64,000 nucleotides of DNA from Rhizaria sp. SCN 62-66 (lineage: Eukaryota). The stretch lies in contig MEDY01000001.1 of the NCBI GenBank assembly GCA_001724265.1, positions 1 to 64,000 on the forward strand, given 5' to 3'. The notes under the pieces were generated by a model, which did no database searches, was not told the origin of the DNA, and saw only the letters and a list, made by a program, of their open reading frames with translations. Both the position numbers and the translations under genes were made by a program. The stretch's first letter is position 1. Every line of letters begins with the position of its first letter. Below are positions 167 to 60,973 of this stretch, in pieces.

Positions 167-3097
167 TTAGTTTCTCAACGCCGTTTTCAGGACGTGGAGG
201 AGCGCAGAAAGCGTGTCGGCGTCGGCAAAAGCAGATGCAAAATGCACAATTGTGGCTTTGTTGTCATGGTCACTAGATTGGCTAATGCCACCACACGACA
301 AGCCCATGAACGCGCGAACATTGTCAGCAGCTCCGGTCTGAAGTGCACTTCTGGCTAAGCGCACTGCCACGGGTAACAGCACGCGCGGCCGCGCAGCCAC
401 AGCGAGCACAACAGGCGGCAGCGTCGCGCAAGCGGGTCCAGTGCAACCTGCCGAGTCAGGAGCATGGGCTGTTGCCGCCGGTGGGAGCGCAAGCGCGCGC
501 CACGCATCGGGATCGTTCCAATCCCAGTCTTCGTCAGAGGAGGTCTTGGTCTCAGTCTCGGATTCGCAGTCGCTCATCGCAGCGCCCCCCGCGCCGCTCT
601 GCACACTGTTGTCTCCGTCGTTGTTTCCGCGGGACGAAGTAGTCGTAAGCAGCGCGCGGGCCTCTGCGGCGAGCACGTCGAGCTCGGCCGCCGCTGCGCA
701 CACCTGCCGCGGCAGCACGCTATACGGCTCCGGGGCCGCGCCATGAACACCATCATCAAGAGCGACATCAGCGGCGACATCACCGGCGGCATCAGCGGTG
801 ACGTCGGGGCGATCGAACCACGCGCACCCGCCGCGGCGCGCGCGCTCGGCCGCGGCGCCGCCGGCGTCGGCCCACAGAAGCAAGAACGACAGCGCGCGAC
901 CGTCATCACTGGCGGCGCCGTCGGCAAAGGCCGCTATGCGTGCGCGGACAAAGACGGCGCGCCAGCAGCGGCGCAGCGCGGGGTGCGCGCCCAGCCACGC
1001 GAGCAGTGCCGCGCGCATCGGCGCCGCTGCGGACATCGGCGGAGACAAACTCTGCGCGCCGCCCCAGTCCTCCGCCGCCAGCTCCTCGCCGTCGCTGTCT
1101 CTGCCGCTGTCGTCGTCGTCGTCCTCGCAGCAGTCGGTTGCAACGACGGCGTGGCACGGGGCGGGCTCGCGGAGCCCGGGCCAGAAGGCGGGCAGTGCGC
1201 CGCCGAGCTCAGAGGCGGCCTCACTGCGCAAGTCTTCCTCCCGCCCCCGCTCTTGCTGTTGCTGTTGCAGCGCGTCTGCCTGCGCAGGGGCCTGTGTAAG
1301 TGCTTCCGTCGCCTCAGCCTCAGCCTCCAAGCCAGCGTAAGTGTCAGCCTCGGCGTCAGCGTCCGCACCGAGGTCGATGTCTGCATCAGTGTCATCATCA
1401 CTGAACGCAATATCGCCGTCGCCCGCATTCTGGTCTATGTTAGGGCCTTCTGTGACAGCGTGCTCAGCGGCAGCGTCAACACGCGGGTGGCCGCCACTAA
1501 CCGAGATACCCATCTCCTTGCACGGCCGTTCCACGCCCACAAGCGCGCCGATCGCGCCCGCCTTGAGCGCGAGCAGCAACGCCGCCGCCACAAACGCCGC
1601 CGCAGCGCGCTGCGCGGGCGCCAGTGCGCGCGCGGCGGCAGCCAGCGCGGCGTCGGTGGCCGCGGCGCCGTCGCCAGCCCCTGCCCCCGCGCCCGCGCCC
1701 GCGCCCGCGCCCGCAGTCACTGCAGCGGCCGGGTCCACGGCGGCGCGCGCGAGCGGGTGCGCCGGGGATAGCGCGCCCTCAGAGAGCCAGTGCTCGCGCA
1801 GCAGCAGCAGCGCGTGCGCCGCGCACTCGCGCTCGAGCAGCGCCAGCAGCCGCCGCAGCGCGCCCACGCGCGCGCCGCGCGCAGTCGACCACAGCGCGCT
1901 CGCGCGGGCCAGCAGCCGCGCACCCGCACTCGCTGCAGAGCCACCGTCGTCGCCGCCGCCGCAGTCGCGGTCGCATTCGCAGTCGTCATGCGGCGACAGG
2001 AGCGGCGAAGACATAAGCGACGAAGACACGGCGGCCGCGACGAGACCGACAGCACTCGCGGCGCGGTCTGAGACGCTCATTGCGTAACCCGCGGTGATTG
2101 CTGCGTGGCCCGCGGCGTCTGCGGCGCGGCACAGGCGCTTAAGGCGGGCGAGCGGGAGCAGTGCCGCGGGCGGCAGCGCGCGCAGCCCCAGTGCGGGCAG
2201 CGCGGCCACGACGGGCAGCGCCAGGAAGCGCCAGCACGCCGGTGGCGACCGCGCAGTCACCGGTCCAACACCGGCAGCGACTGCGCCGTCAACAGAGACA
2301 GCAGCGTTCGCAAAAGCGGCTGCGGCGGCGACTGCGACGGGCCCCCGGTTACGGTCACCGATGTGCAGCCGGTGCGGGGCGAGCAGCGAGGCGTAGGCAT
2401 CCGCGGCGGCCGCGGGGCTGGCGCACAGCCCGTGGGCCGTGAGCACTGAAAGCGCAGCGAGCGTACAGGACCAACCGGGGGCGCGTAGTAGCGCAGGCGG
2501 CAGCGGGCGCCACGAGGCTGACAGCAGCAGCCGCGGAGACGCCGGCGGGAACTGCAGCGTCGCAGACTCAGAAACAGACGCAGTATCGAGTGCTGCGGCG
2601 TAGGCTGCGGCGGCGGGCAGCAAACGCACGTAGAGAGCGACGGCGGCGGGGGAGCCCCAGTCAACGGCAGCGATGAGCGCCTGCTGTGCACGCGCGCGGT
2701 GCGCGGAGGCGAACAGGTCCGCGCCGCCGCGGGTCGCGCGCTCGGCGAGGGAGACGAGCGTTTCAGCGACCTCGAGTGTGGGGCGCGCGAATGCGGACGC
2801 GAGCACGAGGCCGTGGAAGACGACGTCCAGCTCGGCGGCGGCCACGGCAGCAGGCGTGGAGCTCTGCGCGGTAAGGTGGAGTGCGATGAGGTCGCGCACA
2901 AGCGCGGGCGCGCCGCGGGCCACGGCGTGGGAGAGCACGGACCGGCCGCAGAAGACCGTGGTGGGCGTCAGGTGCCACGTCGAGAGCAGCTACAGGATGC
3001 GCTCGGCGGAGGTCCCGGCGTCAATCAAACCGCATATGTCATTAAACGCCGTGGCAAGGGCTGACGCGTAGGCGGGGACGCGCAGCGGAGCCTCCAT
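167..3097 (-). CDS. Ala-rich protein with divergent ankyrin-like repeats, 976 aa, with an in-frame TAG at codon 36
   Basis: The ORF track starts at a GTG (2938), but the frame extends to an ATG at 3097 in ACCATGG context: MEAPLRVPAYASALATAFNDICGLIDAGTSAERIL*LLSTWHLTPTTVFCGRSVLSHAVARG. TAG at 2990-2992. Ankyrin-like segments GRSVLSHAVARGAPALVRDLI, ALIAAVDWGSPAAVALYV and DNKATIVHFASAFADADTLSALL. Ends in TAA. Confidence 0.7.
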
Positions 3098-3256
3098 GGT
3101 CTCTCACAAAGGCCGGGGCTCGAGTCAGACAAAATGATATCAGGTCTCCTCTTTGCTCACAAAGGTCGACTGAAGGGAGGTATTGCCTACACTACTGGGC
3201 AAAGAAAGCAGCAAAAAACAAATGAAGACTGCGCCGTGAGAGTATTTTCATTATTG

Positions 3257-4369
3257 TTAACCTTGTGCAGGAGCCATTACGTGCGCTTTTGCGGGTCGTG
3301 CTTGACAACATGAGTTACAACTTTCACGTTGCTGATCTTGATAAAGTTTAAGCCAGCACTGAGTGTATATGACATTTGGAAGACGTATAATGAGCAGATC
3401 CTGTGAAACACTACGTAGTATATTCCAATTTAGCGCCATGTCTGTCACTGACGGTCAATGTGAAGCAGTCTCTAGGAAAGATATGCTTGCAAAGCAACGG
3501 GTTGAGGACTTAAAGAACGCACTGGCGCGCGGGCTTGCTTAACGGAGGTTCGCGTTGCCCTGGCAACACATGCGTCTTTTTGTTGTTCCGGACGGTGTGC
3601 CTAGTCCATTGTTGGGTGCTTCTACGAGCTGTCGCAGACGTACGGTGATTGTGCGTTCGTTAAGTGCCAAAGAGCATTGTTTGGCTGCCATATCTTTCGA
3701 CAGCTGCGCTCGACAATAGCGGTTCATAATGACACGCCGACGGCATAATATTTGAGACATTGTGCGGCATAACATGTTCTACTACTCCCACTTTTTCTCT
3801 CAAAGAACCTGCGACGGCAGACAGGTCAACGCGGTAACTGTTGCGTGCGAGCTTCTTGTTACCACCCTCGGGCAAGTCACTGCTATCAATGTCATTCCCC
3901 TCTCTTTGTACACTCTACCCTCACCACACAGATTGTGAGAACACCAGACGCCATTGTATGGTCTTGTCTTGCGTTGGAACCTCTTGTCGATCAGCATTGA
4001 CAATCCCATATCCGCCCCGTTCACGGTTACTCTCACTTTTTACTTTGTTCCGGTACTAACACCAACACGATGTGACTGTTCCAGCTGAGAGATGCGCTCA
4101 TACAGTTGACACAGCGAGCAATCGAGATGCAGTTATACTTAATGCGCACATTTGACGCACCTCTAGTGCGTTCCACGCATTAACAGCGTGATGATCGCCT
4201 CGGTTCGTCGTAACTTGTTGACTGCGTTGCCATTGAAAGAAGTCGGCCCCTGACACCTAGGCGCGTCGCAGAGGCTACAGATAGTGATATCCGCGTTTTT
4301 CAATCGGGTATTAGTATGATTGCGTGGCCTAGCATCAACACTCGCTCTGCAGCGTGTGCAGTCCCACAT
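3257..4369 (-). pseudogene. Decayed Cys-rich (W-x-C-x2-C / RanBP2-like zinc finger) coding remnant
   Basis: Minus-strand fragments in shifting frames: WDCTRC...ITICSLCDAPR, *RCVKCAH / KYNCISIARCVNCM, WDCQC*...HT...LTICVV, and RESCNSCCQARP. Several stops and frameshifts; GC intermediate between genes and spacers. Confidence 0.4.
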
Positions 4370-5137
4370 AAGAAGTCTTGACCAGCAAAGTTACAAGTGG
4401 GCGCTCCGTTGCTTTTCACAAACACACGTCATAATAGAATCATTGAACGAAAAAGAAACACTCCTATAATACATCTTGCATTAATAAATGTTATACTTAA
4501 GTTTTAAGCCAGCCTGACTTGCTAATCATGATGAAGTCACTTAAAAGCGGCAAACAAAACGAGTATTGGAAGTAATCCTTTTAGTCGCCCCATTTGCTCG
4601 GTCAGGAGCGCGGCTTGACTTCAAAGGAGTCCGACGGATGATAACAAATACCGGATTTATTCACGGAGCTTGTTGACATGAGCAATATTATATGAATATA
4701 TTTAGTGACATGATGCTTTGCATACTATATTTCAACTGTGTTGGTATTCGTTGGAGTCTTGTTGTCGTACCGCCTCGTTCATGGCACCTCGTCGTTGCCT
4801 CACGTTATCGCTCTGAGTTCATGTTTTTCTCTCGGACTACTCGCCAAGATGTGTCTTGCTTTTAAGACCACCCGGGCAAAACAATTTTTGACTTAATTCA
4901 CGCATTTCTCTTTTAAGCATCCTTTAAGACCCAGTGCATCGTCGCTAGAGACTTTGCTTTTGATCTCCTTTGGCTTACACCCGCCTACCCGCCCCTTTGT
5001 CACCGTTGTCTTATCTTCAGCATTTGTCACCGCCACATCACAAGCAGGAGTTTACAGTGGGCGCAGCACAAACCGACAGACCACAACGCACCGTTTGACG
5101 TTATCTCGCTGCTTCCGCGCGCGGTCTAAGCACCCCA

Positions 5138-8100
5138 ATGTCTGACGATTCCTTGCCAGACATGGAGGTTGAGGAGCTGCGCCAGCACTCGCGTACGCCC
5201 TCGCAGTCGCGTGGCAACGCCGAACACTCTCAGTCGCGCAAGGGCACTGGCTCTGCGCATTAGTCCTATGGCGATGGCTGCCAGCCTTCGCGCGGCGACG
5301 CGCATCCTGAGCCGTCCCGCTCGCAGTCGCGCAAGCGGTCGGAGCGCTCCGTGTCGCGCAGGAACGAGCCTTCGCGCTCGCAGAGGGGCCCCGTGGAACA
5401 GCCCCCGCAGGCGTCCTACGGCGACGTTGTCACCGCCGCCCCCGTCGCGGCGGCCGCCGCCGCGGCGGCTGTGAACGCGTACGAGCCCTCGCAGTCGCGC
5501 GGCGAGCCGGCGCTGGTGGCGCCGCTGACCAACTACGAGTCTGTGGACGCCGGCGGCGGTAGCGACCGCGAGTCCGACCCCGGCGTGGACTCCCGCGACC
5601 GCGACCGCGACCGTGACAACGAGCCCGAGCCGAGCTACGCGAGCCGCTTCTCGCAGAGCTACGCGACGCGGCAGCCCGGCACGCCGCGCCGGTCCATCTT
5701 CGCGCGTTCCAACAGCCAGCGCTTCCTCGACCTGCCGCGTCTGACGTCGTCTTACGACGCCCCGCTCCGCGTGGCGTCGCCCGTGGCCGCGGCGCCCACG
5801 CCCAAGCCAGTCAACGACGGACCCGTGCTGCCGCCGCGGCCCGGCTACGTGCCCGCGGACGTCCCCACCTCGGCCTTTCACGTCGTCACGCACTGGCACA
5901 AGACGCGCCGCGCCAACAACACGTACATCTGGTTTGACCTCGCGCCCGCAGAGGGCCGGCTGCGCGGAATCAACGTCATCGTCCGCTTCTACGTCGACGA
6001 CGAGACGCACCCTAAGGGCACGCGCGGCTACCGCGCCGGCGCCACGCAGGACGCGCTCGCCACGGGCCAGTACGGCCGCTTCGCGCTCGAGTCGCTCACG
6101 CAGTACTTTTTCGGCGTCGGCGAGCACGCGCGTTATCTGTACGACACGCCACACGAGCGCGCGATGCAGCTGCACTACGAAGAGTGGGTGCGCGCCGACG
6201 TGCGGCTGATGCTGCTCGAGTTCGGCACGTCGGCCGAGTGCGCTCTCTTCACGGCGCTGCTGCAGCAGTGGATCGCGCTCTGCCGCATGCGCTTCGTCGA
6301 GCGCGAAGTGGGTCACTGGACGCGCACGTGGACCGACACAAAGGTGCGCCGCGTGCTCGAACACGGCTCGCTCGTCAACGTCTACGACCAGAACGCGAAG
6401 CAGACGGTGTGGCTGTTGTTTGACCAGGCGGGCATCCGCACGTGCCGTCCCGAAGACTCGCTGCGCATTGAAGACATCGCGGACATCGTGTTCAAGCCGC
6501 CGGAGGACGTGTCGCCCGTCGACGACGACGCCGTGGCCTCTGCCAACGCGCTCGAGACGGCGCTCGCCAAGGCCGGCATCGCGGCCGCGGGCGCGGCAGA
6601 GAAAGAGGGCATTCCGTCGTCGCTCGACGCCGCGCCCGGCTCGCTGGCACTGATTGAGGCCGGCAAGCGCGTGCGCTCGCAGGGCTACACCGTGGTGATC
6701 AAGACCGTGAGCAAGGAAACGGGCGCTGTGGGCGAGTTCAGCCTCATCGCCATGTCGGAGCCGGCGGTGCTGGAGTGGCTCTTCCGCCTCAAGGACGAGG
6801 TGCTCAAGTACACTACCGCGGCCGCCGACGCCGCCTCCACGGGCTCTCCCACGACATCAACCACACACGCCGAGGGCCACCAGGAGTTCTGGTGGAGCGC
6901 GTTCGAGAACGAAGAGTCTGATAAGCAGCTCAAGGCGTGCAACACACTGCTTGACGACGAAGACATGGTTCTGGTCGGTCCCCCGCGGTCGCTGGACCCG
7001 CCTGAAGTGGCCCGCTTCAAGCGCGCGCGCTGGTCGCTGACCGAAGAAACGCGCCTCGCCACCACGGCGCTGTCGCGCGGCGTGCTGCTGCGTCTGCACA
7101 GCGCCAACGCGCCGCCCGCGCTGCTTATCTTCTCCGTGCGCCAGGGCCGTCTCGCGTGGTTTTCCCCCGCCGAGGCCAACGTGCCGCTGTCCGACACCAA
7201 CTCGATCTCGCTCGAGACGGTCTCGAAGGTCATGCTCGGCAAGCAGACGTCGGGCTTCACCTTCATGGAGTCGGCCAAGGCCGTCGCGGCCGCGCACTGC
7301 TGCTCCATCATGTTCACCCCGCTCGCCGCGGTGGAGCCGCCGTCGACGGCGTCGGCCGCGCACCTGCAGAAGCTCGCGCTCACGGCGCTCAACAAGTGCC
7401 TCGCCGCGGGCGAGCTGTGTCTCGAGGCTGAGAACGAGGCCGCGATGCTGGCCTTCCTGACGCACCTCAAGGTGCTGACGGACGAGCCCGACCTCGTCAC
7501 GGCGGGCTTCCGCGTCGCGCGCAACGCGCTGAGCGACGACGTGCGGTCCATGCTTACGCCGCTCTACGCGGGCACCGAGTTCATCTGGTCGTCGTTGTCG
7601 ACGCACCCTGTGCAGCCCGGCACGGCGCTGCCCGAGGGCTCGATCCTGAGCGAGGACCGCAGTGTGTACTCGCTGCATTCGCCGCCGCAGATCCGCCGCG
7701 TGCTGTTCCGCTCGGGTCGGCTGTACTTCTGCACGCCGGACCACTTTGTGTCGCTGTCGTCGCTGCGCGCGCTGTGCCACGGCCTCCACATCCCGTTCCA
7801 GAAGGCCATCGGGCTGAAGCAGATCCCACCCGGGCACTCGTGGTCGATCCTGTACGACCCCGCGCACAACCACTTCGTCATGTCACAGGGCCTGGTCGGC
7901 ATCGAGACGCTTGCGCCCGTCAACGATTTCACACACGCGCTCACGGCGGCCGCCACGCAGGGTATCTCCTCGTTTGCCGGCTGCGTCGCGCTTAACGTCG
8001 AGTTCGCTTCGCGCGAGACGTTCATTAACTGGCACGAAGGCTTTAAGGTGCTGCTCGCCGACGCCGGCATGTCCGTCTCGCACAGCGCCGGCGCGCTTGA

Positions 8101-11100
8101 CCGCAAGACGGGCCCTATCTACGCGTGCGTGCCGCGCCGCCAGCAGTCTCTGCGCGAGGCCGCGCTCAATGGCGTGCGTTTTCTCACGCACTCCTCGTCC
8201 TCCGCGGGCGCCGGCTCCGGCGCGGGCAACGGCGGCGGCGTGATTGCGCCGCCGACCAAGAGCGTTGTCTACTGCACGCAACAGGCGCTGCTGTGGGGCC
8301 CGCTCGGCGAATGCATGTCGCTGCGCCACGTGCGCGACGTGTGGGCCGGCGGCGCGCCTGACGCTGTGGTCGAGTCGCAGTCGCGCCAGGAGATCTCCAC
8401 CGAACATATCGAGCTGCGCAAGGTCAACAAGGCGCTGGGCCGCAAGTCGGGCGCCGCGGCTCTGGCGCAGGCCGAGGCCGACGCCGCCGCGCGCACGCTG
8501 CCGGGCGACTCGAAGCGCGTGCGGCGCCAGCGTCTGCGCGACGCCCTGGCGGCGAACCGTATGCTGGACGCGTCTGACCGGCTCTCGCTGCTGGTTGAGG
8601 AGCAGTGCGTGCTCGACGGCAAGCTCGCCGTGCACAACAAGGTCGTGCGCTTCTACGCCGTGCCGGGCACCAAGTCTGAGGCCGAGCTGGCGCTCGAGAA
8701 GGACAGCAAGGCGGCCTCGGCCACGGCACTGTCGGACACGCTCGCCAAGGCCCGCCAGGACGGCGACGCCGCCGCGCGTGGCGGCGACAGCGGCGGCGCG
8801 AGCCGCGACGAGAGCAAGTCCAACGCTGGCGGCGTCAGTGGCTCGCGCGTGCGCTCCGAGGAGAGCGACGACGGCTCGTCGAGCGAGGACGAGTACGAGG
8901 ACGACGCCGCAGGCGCGACTTCGGCCTTCTTCGCGCGCGCGACGGCGCTGACAGGCAAGGCCGCCGGTCTGCGCTCGAGCATCAACTCCGCGCACCCGGC
9001 GGCGAGCCAGACGAACGCGTCGCCGCTCGGCGGCTGGGTGCTCGCGCTTCACGACGCGTCGGTCATGGCGCACGCTGCGGCCATGGCGGCCACGCGCGAC
9101 CCCGCGCGCATGCGCTTCCGCATGGGTGCCAAGTGGCACAAGTACATCGAGATGGAGGAGTTCGCGCCGCTGACGCAGGGTGTGGTGATGAACGTGCACC
9201 GCGGCGACGGCCCCGCGGAGCCGCGCCTGGTGTACTTTGCGCAGGGTCGTATTTGCATCGAAGACCCCGAGACGACGACGCGCGAGGCGGGCATCAACTC
9301 CTTCTCCGTCGACGGACTCGACATCATGGTCGGTAAGCAGACGGCTGTGTTCCTGCGCACGCAGTGGGGCATGGAGGCCCGGGACATCTGCTGCTTCACC
9401 ATGATGCTGCGCGACGACTCGATGAATGAGGTCGAACTCAACCTCGAGATGGGCTCGCCCGTGCACCTCCAGCACTACATCGACTGCGTCGAAAACTTTC
9501 TCCGCTCCGAGGGCGCCCGCGTCGTGCGCTCCGAGGAGCCGTCGGCATTCCCCGAGGCGCCGCCCGCGCGCTTCATCTCGTTCCTGCCCGAGAACGCGAA
9601 GCTCACGGCGCGCGGCTCCACGCGCCAGCGTCTGCAGCGCCTGCTCAACTCGGGCACGCCCTTCATCATGTTCGACGGCCCCAACTCGCCGCCCCAGGAA
9701 GTGCTGCTCTTCGTGCGCAACAACGCGCTCGTCTGGGTGCCCAAGGAGAACCGCATCGGCATCTCTACGGTGCAGTCCGTGGTGCTGACCAAGACGGCTG
9801 CCATGGCGCGTAACCCCTACGCCGCGAGCGCCGACGCCTTCGAGTGCGCCGTCGTGACGTTCGAGGACGCTGCCGCGGCGGACCGCGTCGGCGAGCTCCA
9901 CATCGAGGCGCCGGGCCACATCACCAAGTTGCACTCGTGGTTCCTCGGTCTGCACCTCGGCCTCGAGCGCGCCGGCGTCGTCGTCGCGCCAGAGACGCAC
10001 TCGGCGGGCGGCCTGCTGGGCTTCCGCCAGTGGACCGTTGCACCGCCGATCGAGTCGCACACGGCCGTGTCCGGTCCCGGCGAAGTGCTCATTTCGCTGC
10101 CGACTGGCGAGAAGCTGCGCATGTTCGCTGATTGCTCGCGTCTGTACCTCTGCGGCGCCGAAGTGGGCCGTCAGGCCGTCACGGCGCGCTCGCTGCACTT
10201 CCGCGACCTCATCGCCATTCACATCGGCTCCGCCGCTGGCGCGTTTGACGCGACGACTAAGGAGCGTCACGCCGCGCGTATGCTGCGCCGCGAGACGCTG
10301 AACATCAGCACCGCCGACTCGTCGTCGACGTCGCTTGTCGACAGCAGTCTGCTCGACGTGCGCTCCTTCTCGCTGCAGTTCTTCGACCCGATGTACCGTG
10401 CCGTCACGGTCGGCTTCCTCGCGTCGTCGCACGCGCAGCTGTCGCGCGTGATCGACATGATCCTCGTGCAGGTCAACTCGCTTGGCTTCCAGGTTGTCGA
10501 GCCCTCCGGCGTGCGTATCCCTGGCACGCGTATCTCTATCTGGTCCCCCAAGCGCATCCACCTTCTCCGCGACCTCTCGCCCTCGGCCGCCGCCATCGGC
10601 GCGCCGTTCCTGTGCTCGCCCGCACAGTACTTACGCGCGCTCATGGCGGCGCCGCTGCGCGAGCTCGTGCGCGGCCGTGAGTTCACGGGCATCGCCATCG
10701 GCCGCAACGGCCAGATGCACAAGCTGCCCGTGTGCATGTTTTACGACGGCCAGGACCGCACGCTCAACGCCGCGCGCGGCGCCTTCACCACGGACGGCTC
10801 GCTCACGACGGCCGCGCAGGGCGCGTACGATGAGGACGACGAGTGGTGCACGTCGGGCAGCGCGCTGACGCACGGCAAGATCTATTGGTGCCCCACGGGC
10901 CGCCGCGAGCAGATCCCCGGCTGCGCAGTGGCGCTGCGCGACGTGCGCCACATTTACGTCGGCAAGCAGACGCCGGCCTTCGTGTCGCCCGTGGCAATGG
11001 ACCTGGACCCGGCGTGCTGCTTCTCGATCGCGACCGAGACGGACACGCTCGATATGTGCGCACCCAGCCCGCACCTGCTGCGCACTTGGGTGCACGCCAT

Positions 11101-13627
11101 CGTGCTCGCCATGAACGCCTCTTCCCTCGCGTACGGCCTCCGCATCCCGGGCGACAAGACGATGCTGCTGTCGCCCACGCCCGCGGCGCGCCACGCCATG
11201 CACCCGGGCGTGATCGCACTCCAGTCGCGTCTGCTGCAGGCCGTTGTGGAGACCGAGACGGACGTCGCATACACGCACGAGATCATCCACCCCACGGCCG
11301 AGCTCTCGGCACTTGCGCGCGCGTCGGTGACGTCGATACTCGCCACGGCCGTCGCCGAGCCGCTCACGGGTGCGCACGCCATTTCGCTCAACGCGGCGCT
11401 CGAGCGCGGGCTGAACATCGCCGCTGAGGAGGCGCTGCTGAGCAAGGGCGTGTCGGCCACCGCGGTCGACTACGTCTTCGCGCCGTCGGAGCAGCAGCTC
11501 ATCGACGCCGCCGCGGCTGGCCGCGACCTGACGTCCTTCACGGGCGCGCACGACGTCTACGACGTGGTGGAGGCGCGGCGCGAAGTGACGGAACTGGTGC
11601 AGGCCTTCTTCATGCCCGACGCCGACACGGGCTCCGCCACGGCGTCCTACTCGCCGCTCAACTTCTCCTCCGTCGTGCTGGCTGACGGGCAGAGCCGCGA
11701 GGAAGACACGGTTGCAGCCGACTGGGGCGGCGCCATCTACTGGTCGCGCTCCGGTCTGCCGCGCCGCTGCCTGCCCGCGCAGTGCGTGCCGATCTGCGCG
11801 CTGACCGAGATCCGCGTGACAAACTCGACACTGACACTGTCATCGCCCGTGCTGCGCGGCCGCTGCTTCCAGGGTGTGCTGCGCCTCACGTCGCAGGACC
11901 ACATTGCGCTCGCCGCCTTTGCGCGCGCCGTCACGGACCGCTGGCAGCGCGTGCCGGCTAACGTCAAGGCGCGCGCCGTGCTGCTCGCGTCGGATGGCAC
12001 GCTCCAGCGCTACGCCGCCGAGGCCGCGACGCTGGCGTACTCACTCGCCACCGGCAACGCCGGCTCCGCGGCCACGTTCGGCAACGTCGACCCTAACGAC
12101 GTGTTTGACGGCCAGGGCACCTCGGCGCTGGTGCGCGCCGCGACGGGCAAGGAGGCCGGCACAGTGTCGCTGGACCTCGTCGACGACGATGCCACTGCGG
12201 CGGACCCCGCGGACGCGGAGGAGCGCCGGCGCAAGATCGCTGAGGCCGACGCCGAGGTGAAGCTGTCTCCGTCGACCGCCGAGGCGGGCTCCGTGTTTGC
12301 CGTGTCTGCTCTCGACGGCGTCCCCAAGCCCGGGCAGCTGGTCAGCTCGGTGGTGCTGGACGCGCTCTTCACGGGGCTGTACCGCCCCGAGTTCCCATTC
12401 GGCCCGCCCACGGGCGAGAAGGACCCCGTGGCGCCTGCGCTCGAGGACGACCTGTCTGCGGGCGCCGACGCCGACGACGCCGCGCTGGCGCTGGCGCTGG
12501 AGCGCGAGGCGCGTGCGCGCTGGGATGCCGCACAGGCCGCGCTCGAGGCGCAGCGCGCGGCGATGCTGGCTGACAAGCTGCGGCGCGACCGCGAGGCTGC
12601 GATGGCGGCCGTCGAGTCCGAGTCCGAGGAGGACGAGGACGAGTACGAGTGGGTCGCCGAGGACGAGGAATTCGTCGTCGAGGAGGAGGACGAGGACGAG
12701 GAGGAGGACCAGGAGGACATTTGGGAGCAGATTGCCCGTCGTGCTGAGGCTGCCAAGCGTCGTGTTCACGAGCGCGCGCGCCAGCAGCTGGCCGATGTCG
12801 TCGCTGCCGCCAGCCGCGGCGAGCTCATGCCGCTGCCCAAGGTCGTGCCCTCCGCCACTGCCACCGCTGCTGGCGACGCCAACGCGTCTGCTGCACCTGC
12901 GGTCGCCGGTCCCGAGGACGCCGAGCGCGCGCGCTCGCCTGCGCCCGCGTCCGTCACCCCTGCCGCACCCGAGGAGGGCGCTCCCGCTTCCTCCGCGGCG
13001 ACGGCGACGACGACGGCATCCGCGCCCGCCTCCACACCCGCGTCCGCGCGCCAGTCGCGCCGGTCGTCGCTGGCGGGCATCACGGCGGCGACGACTGTGC
13101 CGGCCGTTAAGGTGGACGAGCACGCCGGCGCCATCTCGGTGCCCACGACGGTGTATCGCGACGCCTGGCAGATCGGACTGCTCGAGGCCGAGGAAGAGGA
13201 GAAGGTGCTCGAGGCCATGCTCAACAAGGCCCGCCGCGCGCGTCTCGCCGCGCAGGCGCGCGTCGCTGCTATGCAGGAGGCGCAGGCCGCCGAGCTCGCG
13301 CGCCAGGAGGCCGCGCGTAAGGCCGCTGAGGAGGCCGCGCGCCTCGCCAAGGCCGAGGCCGCCGCCGCGCGGGCCGCCGCGCGGGCCGCCGCGCGCGCCG
13401 CTGCGGGTTTTGATGGCGAAGAGGACGAGGACGAGGACGAGTACGAGGAGGAGGACGATGACGCTGACAACGAGGAGCAGGAGGTCGGCCACATTGACGC
13501 CACCGCCGACGCTACCGCTGATGCCACCGCTGAAGTCTCCACCGTTTCCGCCTCGGGCGCCACCGCCTCCGCCAGTGGTGTCGCTGGCTCCGCGTCGGCT
13601 TCTGCGGCAGACTCGCGCAACGAGTAA
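5138..13627 (+). CDS. Large tandem PH-like domain protein with acidic/coiled-coil C-terminus, 2829 aa, with an in-frame TAG at codon 42
   Basis: The ORF track starts at a GTG (5351), but the frame extends to an ATG at 5138 (MSDDSLPDMEVEELRQHSRTPSQSRG...GSAH*SYGDG). TAG at 5261-5263. Repeated PLC/Mcp5-type PH-like signatures (GKQTxxF at 7238, 9332, 10961; CCFSI...LDMCAPSPHLLRTWVHAI). Strong C/G third-position bias; ends in TAA. Confidence 0.8.
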
Positions 13628-18403: not shown

Positions 18404-20783
18404 ATGTCTATCCTTATGAAGTCCACGCATGATTCTGGGTACGTTTGCAGCCGCGTTTCCTTCTGTTATATCTCTTCATACCACAAAACGAACTCAACTC
18501 ATGTAACCTACCCCGTATTCTTCGTATTTTACATCATCACACACAGGACGCGGAGGCAGTGGGGCGTGTCCCCGCCCGTGTCCGAGGCGCCCTCGACGGC
18601 GCATGACCGCGCGCTTACGGACGAAATGGTACAGCTGCTGCGCGACAACGGCCGCTTCGAGTCCGAGGCAGAGACCGCGCTGCGCGTCAACGCAATTCGC
18701 GGCATCCAGGACCTCGTGCAGGAGTGGGTCCAAGACTGCTGTAAAGCGCTTAACTACGCTGAAGACATGCGCAGGAACATCCGCGCACGGGTACGCGCAA
18801 TAAATTTAACCGAAATATCTTACGACAACGTATCTCCATCTGCGTACTAATTCATTTTACCACTCTCTGTTGTCCCTTTTTGCGCAGATGTACACGATCG
18901 GCTCGTTCCGGCTGGGCGTCAACGCCGCGGGCGGCGACGTGGACATGGTCGTGGTGACGCCGCGCTGCATTACCCGCGACATGTTCTTCACGGCTATGCT
19001 CGCCAAGCTCCGCGGGTGCCCTCGCGTCACCGAGCTCAACCCCGTGCCGAACACCTACGTCCCCGTGATCAAGTTCTACTTCGACGGCGTGGATATCGAC
19101 CTTCTATTTGCGCAAGTCGCGCTTAATATTATCCCCAATGACTTCAACATCCGCGACGACTCGGTGCTGACGTCCATCGACGAGGCCTCCCAGCGCTCGA
19201 TGAACGGCGCCCGCGTCAACGACGGTATCCTCGAGCTCGTGCCCAACCGCGAAGCCTTCCGCACCACGCTGCGCTTCATCAAATTCTGGGCCAAGCGCCG
19301 CGGCATCTACTCGAACGTCTTCGGCTACCCGGGTGGTGTCGCCTGGGCCATCATGACCGCCCGCGTGTGTCAGCTCTTCCCCAACCTCGACGGCGCCGTG
19401 CTTGTGCAAAAGTTTTTTCTGACGTACCGCGTGTGGTCGTGGCCCAAGGCGGTGGACCTCACTCCGCGCGTAGTCCGCGCCGACCTGCGGCTGGCGATCT
19501 GGGACGAAAAGCGCTCACAGGGCGACCTGATGCCCGTCATCACGCCCGCGTACCCGTGCATGAACAGCACGTTCAACATCACCGTGTCGACGAAGCGTGT
19601 GCTGGAGCAGGAGCTCGCGCGCGGCGAGGAGCTCTCCCGCGCGATCGGCCCCACGCTTGCGGTGTCGGAGGCGCGGGCCCTGTTCGAGCGCATCGCCACG
19701 CCGACAGACTTCTACTCGCGGTACAAACACTACCTGGATGTGACGGTGTCGGCGGACTCGGCCGTGGAGATGTCGACGTGGCAGGGCTTCTGCGAGTCCC
19801 GCATGCGCACGCTCGTGGCGCTGCTGCAGAACAAAAACCCCGCTGGCGGCGAGGCCACGACGTTCCTCCGCGTGCACCCGCACCCGGTGCCGATCGAGGG
19901 CTCATCGCCGCAGGAGCTGCACTACTACTTCGGGATTGCGTTCGACGCGGCCAAGGCGCCACTGCCCGCGGGCGCGCCGACGGGCACGAAGCCGACGCTG
20001 GACATCGGGGCAGATATTGCGCAATTCACCGCGACGCTGATGAAGGACGACAAGATTTGCAAGGGCGGGATGAAGATCGCGGTTGACTTCCTTCGCGCGG
20101 CGCAGCTGCCAGACACGGCGTTCCCGGCGGGCCGGCCTGTCGCGCCAGCCAAGAAGACCGTCAAGAAGGCCAAGACTGCCGCAGCCGCCGCTGTGGCCGC
20201 TGTGGCTGCAACCTGCGCGGACGGCGCTGCAACCGAGGCTGACGTGCAACTGCCCGCGCCCGCGCCCGCGATTCCGCCTGCGGCTGTAGCTGCAACCCCG
20301 CCTGCGCCCATGGCGACTGCGCCCTTGGTGGCTGTGTCCAGTGCGCCCGTGGCTGCGACCGTGACTGCCAACTCGGCGCCCGTCGTCGCTGCTGCCGCTG
20401 CTGCTGCTGCTGATGCTGCTGTTGCTGCTGGTGCTGATGCCGCTCATGCTGCTGTGACTGTCGCCGCCGCCGCTGCAGAGGACGCTAGTGTCCCGCGGAC
20501 TGAGAGCGCTGTCACTGGCGCTGCCGGTGGCCCCGGCGTTGTCGCTGACGCGAATGCTGGCGCTGAGGCGGGCTCTGACGGCGTTATCACAACAGGGACT
20601 CGCGTGGCGCCGATGGTCATTACACAGGCTGCGATCGCGGCGGCCGCGGCGGCGGATATGGTCGCGCCCACGCCCGTGGCCGACGTTGTCGCCGCGGGCC
20701 CGCCCGCGCAACAGCAGCTCAGTGCGACTGAGGCCGAGACTGCAGTTGAGACTGCAGTCGCGACTGCGACGAGCGCCATTTGA
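18404..20783 (+). CDS. PAP1: Canonical nuclear poly(A) polymerase, 724 aa; exons 18404-18438, 18547-18790, 18888-20783
   Basis: WGVSPPVS N-terminus, GSFRLGV and GDVD nucleotidyltransferase motif, VPVIKFYFDGVDIDLLFA, SMNGARVND, WAKRRGIYSNVFGYPGGVAWA, MPVITPAYPCMNSTFNIT. Splicing of two GT-AG introns restores one frame. Ala-rich low-complexity tail; ends in TGA. Confidence 0.95.
18439..18546 (+). other. Spliceosomal intron 1 of PAP (108 nt)
   Basis: GG|GTACGT ... ACACAG|G; AT/pyrimidine-rich interior. Confidence 0.8.
18791..18887 (+). other. Spliceosomal intron 2 of PAP (97 nt)
   Basis: CGG|GTACGC, branch-like TACTAAT at 18845, pyrimidine tract, GCGCAG|ATG. Joins IRAR to MYTIGSFRLGV in frame. 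Confidence 0.92.
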
Positions 20784-21484: not shown

Positions 21485-22196
21485 ATGCAAGGTCGCAACA
21501 AGCACACCCGCTTCCCCTACGCGCTGCTGCTCATTGTTGTTCTCCACGTACGTCTTTAACCTTCGCCAGTGTGACCGCCCGACTTCATTCTCGTCGTAGA
21601 GCAGACCCAGACTGACAGCCCCACATTTTTGTTACTTTTTTGCACCCCTACAGTTCTTCGTCTACAGCGTTTGCTGCGTACACGCCCCCGCCCAGCAGTA
21701 CCTGATCCGCGAAAGCGCCAACCTCCGCCGCGTCGACCCCCAGTTCACTTCCTCCGTCGTCTCCAACACTCAGCCTCAGCCAGGACTTCCGAACCCAGGG
21801 GGCGCAGCCCCGCGAGGCTTCTCCTCGCACAACTCCGACTCATCTTCTTCCTCCTCGAACAACACCAGCAGCAGCAGCGGTAGCGGCGGCGGCGGAACCT
21901 CCTCAGCAGGCTCTTTCGCTTTCGTCCTCGCTTCCAGCGCAGCACTTCAGTCCTACTTCTGCGACCTCACCGAGCAGCAGCGGACCGAACGTAAGCGCTC
22001 CTCGCTTTTCTTCTCGCGCTCTCTCACCAAGGCCCTCTCTGGCGCTTCGTCGACCTCAGCGCTCCTCCGCTCCGCTCCGCCAACTAAGCCCGGTCCCGGC
22101 CCAGCGCACTCTTCCTCACTCTCACCAGCCGCGTTACAGTTCCTCGCGCGCATTGTCGAAGCTCTCCCCGCTTTTTCCCCCGTCTTTGCCTTCTAA
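21485..22196 (+). CDS. Spliced 201-aa ORF (putative uORF of the bZIP mRNA or small membrane/secreted protein); exons 21485-21547, 21654-22196
   Basis: Exon 1 MQGRNKHTRFPYALLLIVVLH, intron GTACGT...ACTGAC...CCCTACAG (106 nt), exon 2 continues in frame FFVYSVCCVHAPAQQYLIRESANLRRVDPQF...LPAFSPVFAF-TAA, 180 stop-free codons with many C-ending codons. Absent from the ORF track. Confidence 0.7.
21548..21653 (+). other. Spliceosomal intron (106 nt) in the upstream ORF
   Basis: Same GTACG donor as the other introns, CTGAC branch-like motif at about 21612, T-rich tract, CAG acceptor, phase 0. Confidence 0.75.
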
Positions 22197-22574: not shown

Positions 22575-23457
22575 ATGAACCCCAGTCTCGGTCAGTTGCA
22601 TGAGTCGGTTGCGGGTGCGCTTCAGTTCGCACACGCGCGCGGCGACCTCGAGGAGGACGGCTTCACCGTGCCTGGCCTCGCTTCATACGTTACGGGGCTT
22701 CTCTCCGCGCGCTCTAACGCTGACGCAGCGCTTTCTGCCGCTACAGCCGCCACTACTGCCTCTGCCACCGCCTCCGCTGCTCCCGCCGCCGCTGCTGTTG
22801 CCGCCGCTGTCACTGCCGACGTCGTCGCCGCCGCTGAATCTGTCCCGAGCGCGAGCATGAATGATATGGCTGAGTCCCCGGTCAAGGTTGAGCCCGCCAC
22901 CGTTCGCCACGCCGCCGCCCCCGCCCCCGTGGCCGCCAGCGCGTCCTTGTTCCCTTCCGCCGCCGCCGCCGCCGCTGCCACCGATGCCGGCGTGCGCCAT
23001 GCTGCCCATGGTCACGCCCACGGCCACGGGTACGGCCGCTCGCACCGCGCACCCCCCGTGTCTTCAGAGCACTACGGCACCAAGCCCGCCTTCCCCACGG
23101 CCTTTCACGCCGCCGCCCCCTCGGGCGCTGCGACCGGCGACGACGGCGTGCTGGCTGACGTCTACCCCGTCCCGCTGGCGATGCCGATGCCTTTCGCCGC
23201 GGCGCTGGCGCGCGTGCCGTCCCCGGGCTCCGTCTCTGCGTCATCGGATCTCCCGTCCACCCCCGACACGTCGTCGCCGGCCTCGATGGGCGCCTTCACC
23301 GGCCCCCATGGCCACGGCGTCCACGGCCACGGTGCTAACGGGTTCGGATACGACTACAGTCAGGACAGCGCCAGCTCCGTTCACAGCGCGGACCTCAACG
23401 ACGACAGCGTCATGTTCGGTGCCCCGCCGTCCAACAACGGCGGCCACGCACAGCACA

Positions 23458-23497
<40 letters not shown>

Positions 23498-24959
23498 GCA
23501 GTGGCGTCAGCGGGCGCAGGAGATGAGCTCGCCGATACTTTTCGCCGTCAATGCCAGTGCCAGTTCCAGCAGCAGCAGCAGCAACAGTGCGCACAACGGC
23601 GTGTTGCCGCGCTTTGCCTCGTTTCCCTCCTCGTCCCGCCATGACGGCCGTGGCTCAGCTTCGTTTGTCTCCGTCTTGCACGGTGGCGAGGGCGACGCAG
23701 GCGCGGCCGCCGCCCCTGCGCCCGCCCCCGCCTCCGCGCAGGAGTCCGGCGCATCGCGGCAACTGGTGCAGGCGCAGCGCGAGGCCGCTTTCCGCGCGCA
23801 TGAGAGCTACGCGCTCATGACGGGCGACTCGGCGGGCTTCGTGCAGGTGCCCGGCGTCCGCAACTCCGCGTACGGCGCGCAACAGCAGCAGCAGCACCAC
23901 CACCACCAACCTCATCAGCAGCCTCCGCAGGGCCAGTACTCCGCCTACGCTGCCGAGCAAGCACAGCGGCGCCAGGACCGCTTCGACCAGCAGCAGCAGC
24001 ACCAACAGCAGCAGCATGAGCAGCAGCGCGCCCACGAGGAGCAGTACGACCAGCAGGAGTACGCCGGCGGCATCGCGAGCGAGGATTTCGACGACGAGGA
24101 TGACGATAGCGACGCCTCCGTCGCTCCGCAGCGCCGCGTGTCGGCCCGTGGCGCCAGCGGTGCCGCGGGGGCAAGCTCTTCCGCCCATAGCGGCGCGCGG
24201 GCGAGCTCTGCCGCGATTGCGGCCCAGCGCAGCCAGATTCCCCCGGTCAAGCGCGGCCGCCCGAAGCTCCGCCGGCCCGCGCCGGTCGCGGCGGCGGGCG
24301 ACGATGATGACGACGACGACATGGACCTGCTCGACAGCAACGGCGCGCCGCTGTCTGCGGCCGAGCTCAAGCGGCGGCGCCTCGCGCGCAAGGCCGAACT
24401 GGCCCGGCTGTCCCGGCAGACGAAAAAGTCGCGTTTGGCTGAGCTGGAGGACGAGGTCGTGGAGCTGCGCAAGCAGCTCGAGGACGCCCGCCGCGCGCGC
24501 GACCGCTCGACTGTGGCTGCGGTGTCGAACAACGGCGCTGCCCCTCGTGGCAACGCTGCGTCGCCCGTCAACGCCGCGCACCTTGACGACATCCAGAACC
24601 TGCTGCAGGAAGTGGCAAACGTCGTGCTGCCCGCGCTCAACGCGCTGTCGACGCACACGCGCGTCCCTGTCACGCTGCCCGGTGCCGCTCACGGCGGCGC
24701 GGCCGCCCCGCCTGCGCTCGGTGCGCCCTCTGTCGCGCGCCCGATGCCGCTGATCCCGCAGGAAGTCGGCATCGCCGCTGCGACTGCGGCCGCGGCTCTG
24801 CAGGCCGCCACCAACTCGGGCGCCGCAGCGCTACAGCAGCACCAGCTCGGTCAGCAGCCGCACCAGCACCAGCACCAGCACCAGCAGCAGCAGCAGCAGT
24901 CGCAGTACCCGCATACGGGCCGCTACTCCTCTGGCTACAACGGCCAGCAGAGGATGTAA
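22575..24959 (+). CDS. bZIP transcription factor with poly-Q and Ala-rich regions, 794 aa
   Basis: Basic region plus heptad zipper KRRRLARKAELARLSRQTKKSRLAELEDEVVELRKQLEDAR (about 24367-24490); AT-hook-like KRGRPK at about 24250; ACCATG start; ends in TAA. Confidence 0.88.
23460..23495 (+). repeat. (CAG)12 coding microsatellite (poly-Q)
   Basis: Uninterrupted CAG run inside the bZIP CDS. Confidence 0.9.
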
Positions 24960-59880: not shown

Positions 59881-60973
59881 ATGAGCTATCGCCGGTCCAA
59901 AGATACCGCCGCGGACGGCTACTCCCGCCCGACCCGACTGGACTCGCCTTCGCGCGACGTCAGCGACCCCGCGCCCGGCCGCGCCCGCAGCCGCGACCGT
60001 GACCCGCTCCCTAGCTCTGTTCTTTTTCCATCCGACGCCGCGCGCGACGCCACCGTTGCCCGAGGCTCTGCGGCGACTGGCGCGGGCGCGGCGGCAGCGG
60101 ATGACGATGATGATGCCGTTGCCCCTTCGTTCGGTGAGGTTGTGGCCGGCGCCTCGGACAGCACTGCGCGCATCACGCGCGAGAAGGAGCGCGACCCGCA
60201 CCGTCTCGAGCAGGTACGATAAATCTACACTCCATCTCTGAGTCAAGAACCCGCCGTTGACCTCATGTCGTTGCGTGATAGCAACATATCTTAGCTTTAC
60301 CACACACGGATTCTCTTAATGGCATTTTTATCGTCCATGATTTCCGTATGTCATGTTATCTTACGTTTATTTTATGTGTGTTGAACTTGTATTGACTCGT
60401 CGCTCACTCCAGCGCCTGAAGCAAATCCAGATCGGCAAGAATACTCCCGCGTACTCACGCTACCTGTCACAGGTTCCACGCGCGTCCCGCGACCCCGCGC
60501 TGCGGCTGACGACGCACCCCACGACGCCGCCGCACTGGGTCAAAATGTCCAAGCGCGCGTTCGACGGCCAGATCAACGTCTGGCGCCGCCAGCTACACTT
60601 CTACGACCCGCCGGTGACAATGGCTGACCGTGAGAAGGAAGAGCAGGAGCGGGACGCGCGCCGCGCCGCCGCTGCTGCTGCCAAGGCCGAGGCCAAGGCG
60701 CGCGATGCGGCCGCTGCGGAGGCCGCGCGCGACGCCGCAGCGGCAGCGCAGTGCAGCAGTGACAGCGCGAACCCCGGTGCCGACGACGCCTCTGCCACTG
60801 CGACCGCTGCTCAGACTGCGACTGCTGAGGGCAAGAGCGCGGACGGCGCGGCGGGCGAGGACAAGTCCAAGGTCGCGGAGCCGAAGCTGTCTGCGGCTGG
60901 ACTCACGATCGGCGAGTCCCTTGGCTACCAGCACATTGACTGGACCAACACTGAGGGGCTCTATGACGACTGA
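59881..60973 (+). CDS. SLBP: Histone mRNA stem-loop binding protein, 297 aa; exons 59881-60213, 60413-60973
   Basis: Spliced RNA-binding domain ERDPHRLEQ|RLKQIQIGKNTPAYSRYLSQVPR...HPTTP...SKRAFDGQINVWRRQLHFYDP matches the SLBP signature (RQKQIxxGKNTxxY...HPxTP...SxRxxDxQIxxWxxxLHxxDP). Ends in TGA. Confidence 0.93.
60214..60412 (+). other. Spliceosomal intron of SLBP (199 nt)
   Basis: CAG|GTACGA ... CTCCAG|CGC, phase 0, AT-rich; splicing rebuilds the conserved domain. Confidence 0.9.

Follow-up and report, generated by a model that had tools for sequence, protein, structure and literature searches.

Two in-frame TAG codons near the starts of neighbouring protist genes hint at a leaky or altered reading of UAG

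Two neighbouring genes on opposite strands of a 64,000-nucleotide (nt) stretch of protist DNA (contig MEDY01000001.1, positions 1 to 64,000; here called the window) each contain one in-frame TAG shortly after the start codon, followed by a long frame that stays open. An earlier note on this DNA had located these TAGs at codon 36 of the minus-strand gene (gene 1) and codon 42 of the plus-strand gene (gene 3), and both the coordinates and the counts were confirmed (Table 1). Beyond the TAG, gene 1 has 940 open codons before its TAA, with the next in-frame ATG 303 codons on; gene 3 has 2787, with the next in-frame ATG 300 codons on and out-of-frame ATGs at 5268 and 5274 ahead of it. The two TAGs are a real, unexplained feature of this genome. 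The explanation that we tentatively favour, well short of confidence, is that they are real premature UAGs that ribosomes pass, UAG being a leaky or ambiguous stop that survives only close to the 5' end. Two codons are all that speaks for a variant code; they hint at a leaky or altered reading of UAG and are far too little for a new genetic code.

The TAGs are present in the DNA and are not artefacts. Independent DNA contigs (Logan contigs of short-read runs) from two further studies, X3 and X4, run through the sites: X3 record 10 (1724-3229) spans the gene 1 TAG and X3 record 11 (3316-5575) the gene 3 TAG, each with 0 differences, and X4 record 18 (3124-5382) spans the gene 3 TAG with a 2-base insertion at 3912 as its sole difference. 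That contigs of 1.5-2.3 kb run through the sites speaks against a heterozygous bubble, and 2.3 kb around the start of gene 3 is identical between samples. The earlier note had counted assembly errors among its alternatives; for Illumina-type assemblies, these identical contigs from two other studies refute that idea. Since every assembly compared comes from Logan contigs of short reads, one systematic error could in principle be common to them all, but the contigs cross the sites without a difference or bubble, and two errors that each make an in-frame TAG near two starts would be a very unlikely coincidence. We therefore regard sequencing or assembly error at both sites as exceedingly improbable.

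A codon-usage log-odds score trained on the other seven genes of the window shows the reading frame and its coding signal running on through each TAG. In frame 0, the stretch from ATG to TAG scores +0.14 in gene 1 and +0.32 in gene 3, and the other two frames score negative; the frame 0 values resemble those of the first 40 codons of other genes, and 8 of 9 control stretches of 120 nt taken upstream of starts are negative. Over the ~300 codons after the TAG, the in-frame scores are +0.04 (gene 1) and +0.12 (gene 3), and those of the other frames -0.19 to -0.44. Of the six possible frames, that of gene 1 ranks first in 5/5 blocks of 600 nt, and the gene 3 score remains in frame throughout. No further stops or frame breaks occur over the 976 and 2829 codons of the two genes, and a pseudogene-type loss of constraint was not seen in them. 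A plus-strand open reading frame (ORF) that overlaps gene 1 (377-1771, ending in TAG) was dismissed, as the gene 1 frame scores best there. Gene 1 residues 1-240, modelled with AlphaFold from the single sequence, gave a poor model overall (mean predicted local distance difference test score, pLDDT, 53.7); its best-scored blocks are residues 11-40 (pLDDT 72-80), with residue 36 lying within a helix at 31-40.

RNA contigs at 9013-9489 and 12098-12372 indicate that gene 3 is transcribed, and one RNA contig (X7 record 24, 707-1077) falls in gene 1. In the between-sample comparison, for which 40 of 321 differences were listed, 27 of the 36 differences listed for gene 3 are synonymous and 9 are not. 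On this count gene 3 is under purifying selection; for gene 1, the evidence is the frame score. Direct repeats lie on both sides of the gene 3 TAG, with 95% identity between 5197-5215 and 5485-5503 and 94% between 5227-5242 and 5320-5335, and their spacings across the TAG (93 and 288 nt) are each a multiple of 3. The gene 3 protein has a disordered, Ser/Arg-rich N-terminus of ~250 residues followed by repeated domains, and its domain-like sequence starts before the first Met downstream of the TAG.

At E values up to 1, Pfam gave no family at the N-terminus of either protein, and gene 1 has neither a Pfam family nor a detectable homologue. Against 1.84 billion representatives, a search with residues 1-340 of gene 1 recovered nothing beyond the gene's own upstream ORF of 35 aa and two repeat proteins judged spurious. 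This 35-residue ORF, running from ATG 3097 to the TAG, is stored in a public protein collection as a separate predicted protein (P0100), which means that automatic gene calling split gene 1 at the TAG. For gene 3, residues 1-520 and 262-900 found no homologue among ~8000 candidates (lengths 1555-4951), a search that likewise did not return the window's own protein, and gene 3 had no match in the JGI metagenomes. As neither gene has a detectable homologue in the collections searched, no residue can be aligned to the TAG and the encoded amino acid cannot be deduced in this way.

Both proteins being orphans, they may be dispensable, and the TAGs could then be fixed nonsense alleles in a near-clonal population, leaving young pseudogenes or truncated or rescued products with no special decoding. 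The sequence is identical in samples of three studies, as would fit a widespread clone that fixes mildly harmful changes. GC-rich frames can also remain open long after a gene is inactivated (here, open non-coding frames run to 400-900 codons), and TAG is one step from the very common codons CAG, GAG, AAG, TCG, TGG and TAC. However, both hits would have had to strike adjacent genes at or before codon 42, in their opening 4.6% and 1.6%, for which random positions give a probability of ~7e-4, and this explanation must also contend with the uninterrupted frames, the in-frame score over the whole of both genes and the mostly synonymous differences in gene 3. The earlier note had suggested a version of it in which two nonsense mutations flank a decayed element. 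Such an element is not supported: the spacer between the genes (3098-5137) has no ORF >78 aa, its composition and dinucleotide indices are those of other intergenic regions, and neither TAG is associated with inverted repeats or element ends. Repeat-induced point mutation (RIP) is recognized by a high TpA/ApT and a (CpA+TpG)/(ApC+GpT) below ~1; in the spacer these indices are 0.88 and 1.13, as in other intergenic regions, and no RIP-like signature surrounds the TAGs. We consider two nonsense mutations, with or without an accompanying element, an unlikely explanation, by a modest measure.

Removal of each TAG from the mRNA by a cryptic, non-consensus phase-0 intron that uses the TAG as its acceptor (5168-5263 in gene 3, 3079-2990 in gene 1) would dispense with any special decoding. 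The introns that can be defined in the window number four: two in the gene for poly(A) polymerase (PAP), one in that for histone stem-loop binding protein (SLBP) and one in a 201-codon gene. Both PAP introns are needed to restore the N-terminal part of the NTPase domain (in a by-eye alignment to the relative P0004), and all frames close once the four introns are removed. In 4/4 the donor is GTACG and the end CAG; lengths are 97-199 nt, GC content 0.40-0.51 and pyrimidine content of the tract 0.68-0.80. The four introns stand out as AT-rich islands in GC-rich exons, and both PAP introns are missing from the 62%-identical PAP relative (L001 659-2595).

We enumerated every GT..AG pair that removes a TAG, keeps the frame and leaves an ATG-initiated first exon, and found a single short candidate per gene (Table 1). 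These candidates resemble the reference introns in size and position, since 3 of the 4 defined introns begin 35-333 nt after the ATG; they also keep the frame and end in YAG, and a TTGAC branch-like motif, read by eye, lies ~30 nt before the gene 1 TAG. In addition, the intron rule rests on n=4 and was found partly via AT-richness, so that GC-rich introns could be missed. Nevertheless, the donors (GTTGAG and GTCCCC), the GC content (0.62-0.66) and the pyrimidine tracts (0.48-0.56) all lie off the reference set, the segments are stop-free with an in-frame coding score, the one in gene 3 holds copies of the exonic repeats in register, and chance alone would place an in-phase GT within 40 codons. 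As read from these features, 5168-5263 and 3079-2990 are unlikely introns, and we rate splicing as the explanation of both TAGs quite unlikely. Two other possibilities were rejected. A GTACGC at 5193 fails as a donor because the fitting frame has no ATG after the TAA at 5127 and there is no in-phase acceptor within 150 nt, and longer gene 1 introns (654 nt and more, such as from GTACGT 3643) are several-fold the known intron size and expected by chance. GTACG is common in exons too.

We next consider the use of TAG across the window, for which nine gene models totalling 18,839 codons were built, four of them requiring intron removal or a choice of start. The nine models end in TAA (seven) or TGA (two, PAP and SLBP), none in TAG, and their codons include two in-frame stops, the TAGs of genes 1 and 3; the earlier note's tally of gene ends and its observation that TAG is absent from the remaining codons both held. 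If TAG made up 20-30% of stops, 0/9 TAG terminators would have a probability of ~0.04-0.13, with nine genes only. For two TAGs placed randomly, the probability that neither lies beyond codon 42 of its gene is ~4e-4. TAG is absent from the genes for PAP, SLBP, purple acid phosphatase and a Nab2-type protein and from an 11,192-codon gene (GC content at third codon positions, GC3, 0.61). There is no avoidance of AT-ending synonyms: CAA makes up 163 of 688 Gln codons (24%), and 15% of Leu codons are TTG+TTA.

These figures bear on the possibility of a genome-wide reassignment, in which UAG would be a very rare sense codon with its own tRNA(CUA), and UAA and UGA the only stops. Both TAGs do lie within continuous coding frames, TAG terminators number 0/9, and the TAA:TGA ratio of 7:2 resembles those in the two organisms described in PMC5304391, Iotanema spirale (UAG=Gln; 104:15) and the rhizarian exLh (UAG=Leu; 56:15). 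Together with phyllopharyngean ciliates (PMC11687900), these UAG-alone codes share with our window the in-frame UAG in continuing ORFs and the UAA and UGA ends with UAA dominant. However, for Iotanema and exLh PMC5304391 records 204 in-frame UAGs in 126 genes (Iotanema) and 71 UAGs in eight conserved proteins, and UAG occurs there in most genes, at conserved Gln or Leu positions, whereas here it is confined to two orphan genes, <=42 codons from the start. A reassigned UAG used in only 2 of 18,839 codons, and in none of the four conserved genes or the 11,192-codon gene despite the GC3 of 0.61, would also be hard to square with the free use of AT-ending synonyms, and were UAG a uniform sense codon, there would be no reason to expect both TAGs in the first 42 codons. 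Genome-wide reassignment is thus distinctly improbable.

The earlier note had proposed UAG recoding or a variant code, with Gln as the most parsimonious residue; Gln is a guess. What stood of this is that the TAGs are real, that the sequence is coding-like on both sides of them and that no gene ends in TAG; full reassignment fits poorly, with TAG at 2/18,839 codons and none in conserved genes. In a form closer to the note, UAG would be decoded as an amino acid, either as a newly reassigned and very rare sense codon or as a stop that is ambiguous when far from the 3' end, with UAA and UGA as sole terminators. The nuclear code of a deep-branching protist widespread in wastewater and bioreactors would then be in nascent change, its UAG only now returning at 5' ends under weak constraint; this we think rather unlikely. 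The note's own caveat, that UAG would be rare, 5'-restricted and perhaps inefficiently read through, comes nearer to the reading we favour than its headline did.

Termination context differs between the two kinds of codon. The nine real stops are followed by G (six), A (two) or T (one), a marked +4 preference for purine (8/9), and the in-frame TAGs by C and T. A pyrimidine at +4 makes for a weak termination context. In the leaky-stop reading that we tentatively favour, both TAGs would be genuine, fixed, in-frame UAGs within the mature coding sequence of two lineage-specific divergent genes. Ribosomes starting at ATG 3097 or ATG 5138 would have to pass a UAG to make the long proteins, a near-cognate or suppressor tRNA inserting an amino acid at some efficiency, and UAG would be a leaky or ambiguous stop in this host, short of full reassignment. 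In-frame UAGs would last only near a start, where the aborted product is a cheap peptide of 35-41 residues; cheap early abortion would explain why both TAGs are found within 42 codons of the ATG and none in the other 18,800 codons. The presence of UAG in the mRNA, its decoding and the efficiency of that decoding are inferences.

Several observations weigh against this reading. There are only two cases, both in orphan, low-complexity, fast-evolving proteins, and the clustering near the 5' end is a post hoc argument. No tRNA gene was seen in the window. The sequences after the TAGs (TAG CTG CTC and TAG TCC TAT) contain no known readthrough motif, neither UAG-CARYYA nor one that they share, and shuffled sequence folds just as well as the 120 nt downstream of each TAG (z +0.11 and +0.30). 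No RNA contig (X7, X13) among the matches listed spans either TAG, and a minor alternative allele or a splice joint at the TAGs may lie among the 281 differences and 358 joints beyond those listed. Finally, the gene 3 variant contigs may come from a second strain or related species and may not be linked to the TAG.

Known systems offer partial parallels. In standard-code eukaryotes, stop-codon readthrough likewise involves a single in-frame stop with a pyrimidine at +4 and a continuing, selected ORF. Known programmed readthrough adds a C-terminal extension, usually with a downstream motif or structure, whereas the stops here are 5'-proximal, with no shared motif and no excess fold. In human beta-globin, AUG-proximal premature stops escape mRNA decay and are rescued by re-initiation at a nearby in-frame AUG. 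The two TAGs resemble such cases in position, nonsense codons being best tolerated in the first few dozen codons, but here the next in-frame AUG is 300 codons away. In Condylostoma, Parduczia and other karyorelicts, and Blastocrithidia, a stop codon is translated when it lies far from the mRNA 3' end, and the same codon can still terminate (PMC4967479, 10.1101/2022.04.12.488043, PMC12153298); this would accommodate a 5' UAG such as those seen here. Those ambiguous codes, however, show abundant in-frame stops gene-wide, involving two or three stop codons, whereas the genes here lack in-frame TAA and TGA altogether and have no TAG past codon 42. A search of full-text literature (main texts) found no report of 5'-restricted in-frame UAGs, nor of a variant code in metagenome-assembled genomes of wastewater eukaryotes. 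Stop reassignment is thought to pass via a rare, ambiguously read stage, and such early stages have almost never been observed. If the UAGs are read through, this host would supply a naturally occurring case, outside ciliates, of a UAG that is leaky or has begun to act as sense; if they are nonsense alleles or odd introns, the finding is an ordinary one, with the lesson that gene callers split such genes.

It is also conceivable that the ATG-to-TAG segments are in-frame regulatory upstream ORFs (uORFs; 35 and 41 codons), with translation of the long proteins starting at a non-AUG codon after the TAG, such as the CTG that follows the gene 1 TAG. The two segments are alike in length (35 codons, and 41 or 33 depending on which of the two first ATGs of gene 3 is taken). 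In the spacer, a poly(A) RNA contig of 274 nt (X7 record 25, 4726-4999) lies 140-410 nt upstream of the gene 3 ATG and suggests a long leader with several upstream ATGs, and with it complex translational control. This RNA could represent a long uORF-rich leader of gene 3 or a separate transcript. Set against this, two adjacent genes would both have to do without an AUG start, the upstream segments resemble the same coding sequence, and the CTG after the gene 1 TAG is in a poor context (T at -3, C at +4), so we hold a uORF arrangement to be very unlikely. ATGs around the contig occur at 4692, 4710, 4713, 4781 and 4821. RNA depth bins are empty at 3336-4669, which is not evidence of silence.

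Restorative A-to-I RNA editing, as known from filamentous ascomycetes, would convert each UAG to UGG (Trp). The fungal system acts on premature UAGs and needs a U at -1, which every UAG provides, as set out in PMC4817773, PMC10776026 and PMC11156358. The examples known there (PUK1, AMD1 and 71 'pseudogenes' in Fusarium graminearum) resemble ours in having a genomic premature UAG in an intact, selected ORF, and there a full-length protein is made; their edited sites, however, are spread along ORFs, stage-specific and fungal. Here, no hairpin is supported at either TAG (folds at z -0.5 to +0.3 relative to shuffles), and the host falls outside fungi in a quick, weakly supported PAP tree. The window also contains an SLBP gene, and SLBP is not known from fungi. 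Editing is thus highly improbable.

Table 1. Positions of the two genes, their TAGs, and the introns, repeats and spacer discussed in the text
Feature	Position	Strand	Description
Gene 1	167..3097	minus	976-codon frame; ATG 3097, Kozak-like gagaccATGg; TAA 167-169; alanine-rich
Gene 1 TAG	2990..2992	minus	codon 36; context ATC CTG TAG CTG CTC, +4 = C
Only short frame-keeping intron candidate, gene 1	2990..3079	minus	90 nt, GTCCCC...CCTGTAG; GC 0.62, pyrimidine tract 0.56
Intergenic region	3098..5137	.	47% GC; presumably divergent promoter
Gene 3	5138..13627	plus	2829-codon frame; ATG 5138, second in-frame ATG 5162; TAA 13625-13627
Gene 3 TAG	5261..5263	plus	codon 42; context GCG CAT TAG TCC TAT, +4 = T
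Only short frame-keeping intron candidate, gene 3	5168..5263	plus	96 nt, GTTGAG...CATTAG; GC 0.66, pyrimidine tract 0.48
Direct repeats flanking gene 3 TAG	5197..5503	plus	TCGCAGTCGCG core, encode SQSR-type peptides; families D1, D6, D7, D12
PAP reference intron 1	18439..18546	plus	GTACGT...CACAG, 108 nt, GC 0.42
PAP reference intron 2	18791..18887	plus	GTACGC...GCGCAG, 97 nt, GC 0.40
201-codon gene reference intron	21548..21653	plus	GTACGT...CTACAG, 106 nt; by frame and signals, not homology
SLBP reference intron	60214..60412	plus	GTACGA...CTCCAG, 199 nt, GC 0.41

The window consists of GC-rich coding blocks (60-75% GC) that alternate with AT-richer spacers (36-49% GC). Its gene content is eukaryotic, including PAP, SLBP and purple acid phosphatase, and further genes encode the Nab2-type CCCH zinc-finger protein and the 11,192-codon product. 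In the PAP tree, the window groups with metagenome and EukProt sequences and apart from the opisthokonts, Discoba and alveolates sampled; this is a quick single-gene tree, with Shimodaira-Hasegawa-like approximate likelihood ratio test (SH-aLRT) support only. The nearest PAP relative is 62% identical, and a JGI metagenome scan with it yielded one 3-kb contig, intronless and with a TGA stop, which is uninformative on TAG. The most that can be said of the host is that it is an uncultured, intron-poor protist with a GC-rich genome. No further DNA of the organism or its relatives came from GTDB genome contigs or IMG/VR, and an Rfam scan of the window returned 0 families. The stretch 2700-5600 is present in bioreactor, wastewater and activated-sludge runs of several studies, among which the source of the window may itself be included, and the stretch around the sites also occurs in poly(A) metatranscriptomes and in public metagenomes of several studies.

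Some further features of the window's genes were observed. In gene 3, a motif recurs around 'GKQT' from 5921 to 8440 and beyond (VMLGKQTSGF, IMVGKQTAVF, IYVGKQTPAF), and the ESM Atlas gave a weak PH-domain lead (best score 0.88, under the 0.9 mark); the protein is possibly a long array of PH-like modules. Over 7595-12805, other samples contain a diverged version of gene 3 in which as many as 11 differences fall within 73 nt in places, third codon positions accounting for nearly all of them; this suggests that a second strain, haplotype or sister species shares these habitats. The 11,192-codon gene (25717-59295, minus strand) is a single uninterrupted gene with a hydrophobic N-terminus. It matches the N-terminal region of BLTP1 only faintly (E 0.028; 12.5 bits, far under the cut-off of 100) and may encode a giant bridge-like lipid-transfer protein of about twice the usual length. 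The 201-codon gene (21485-22196) encodes a hydrophobic N-terminus and a Ser-rich body and lies directly upstream of a gene at 22575-24959 in the same frame. The spacer between these two is 378 nt long and C/T-rich, and pyrimidine-rich 5' leaders are general in this window.

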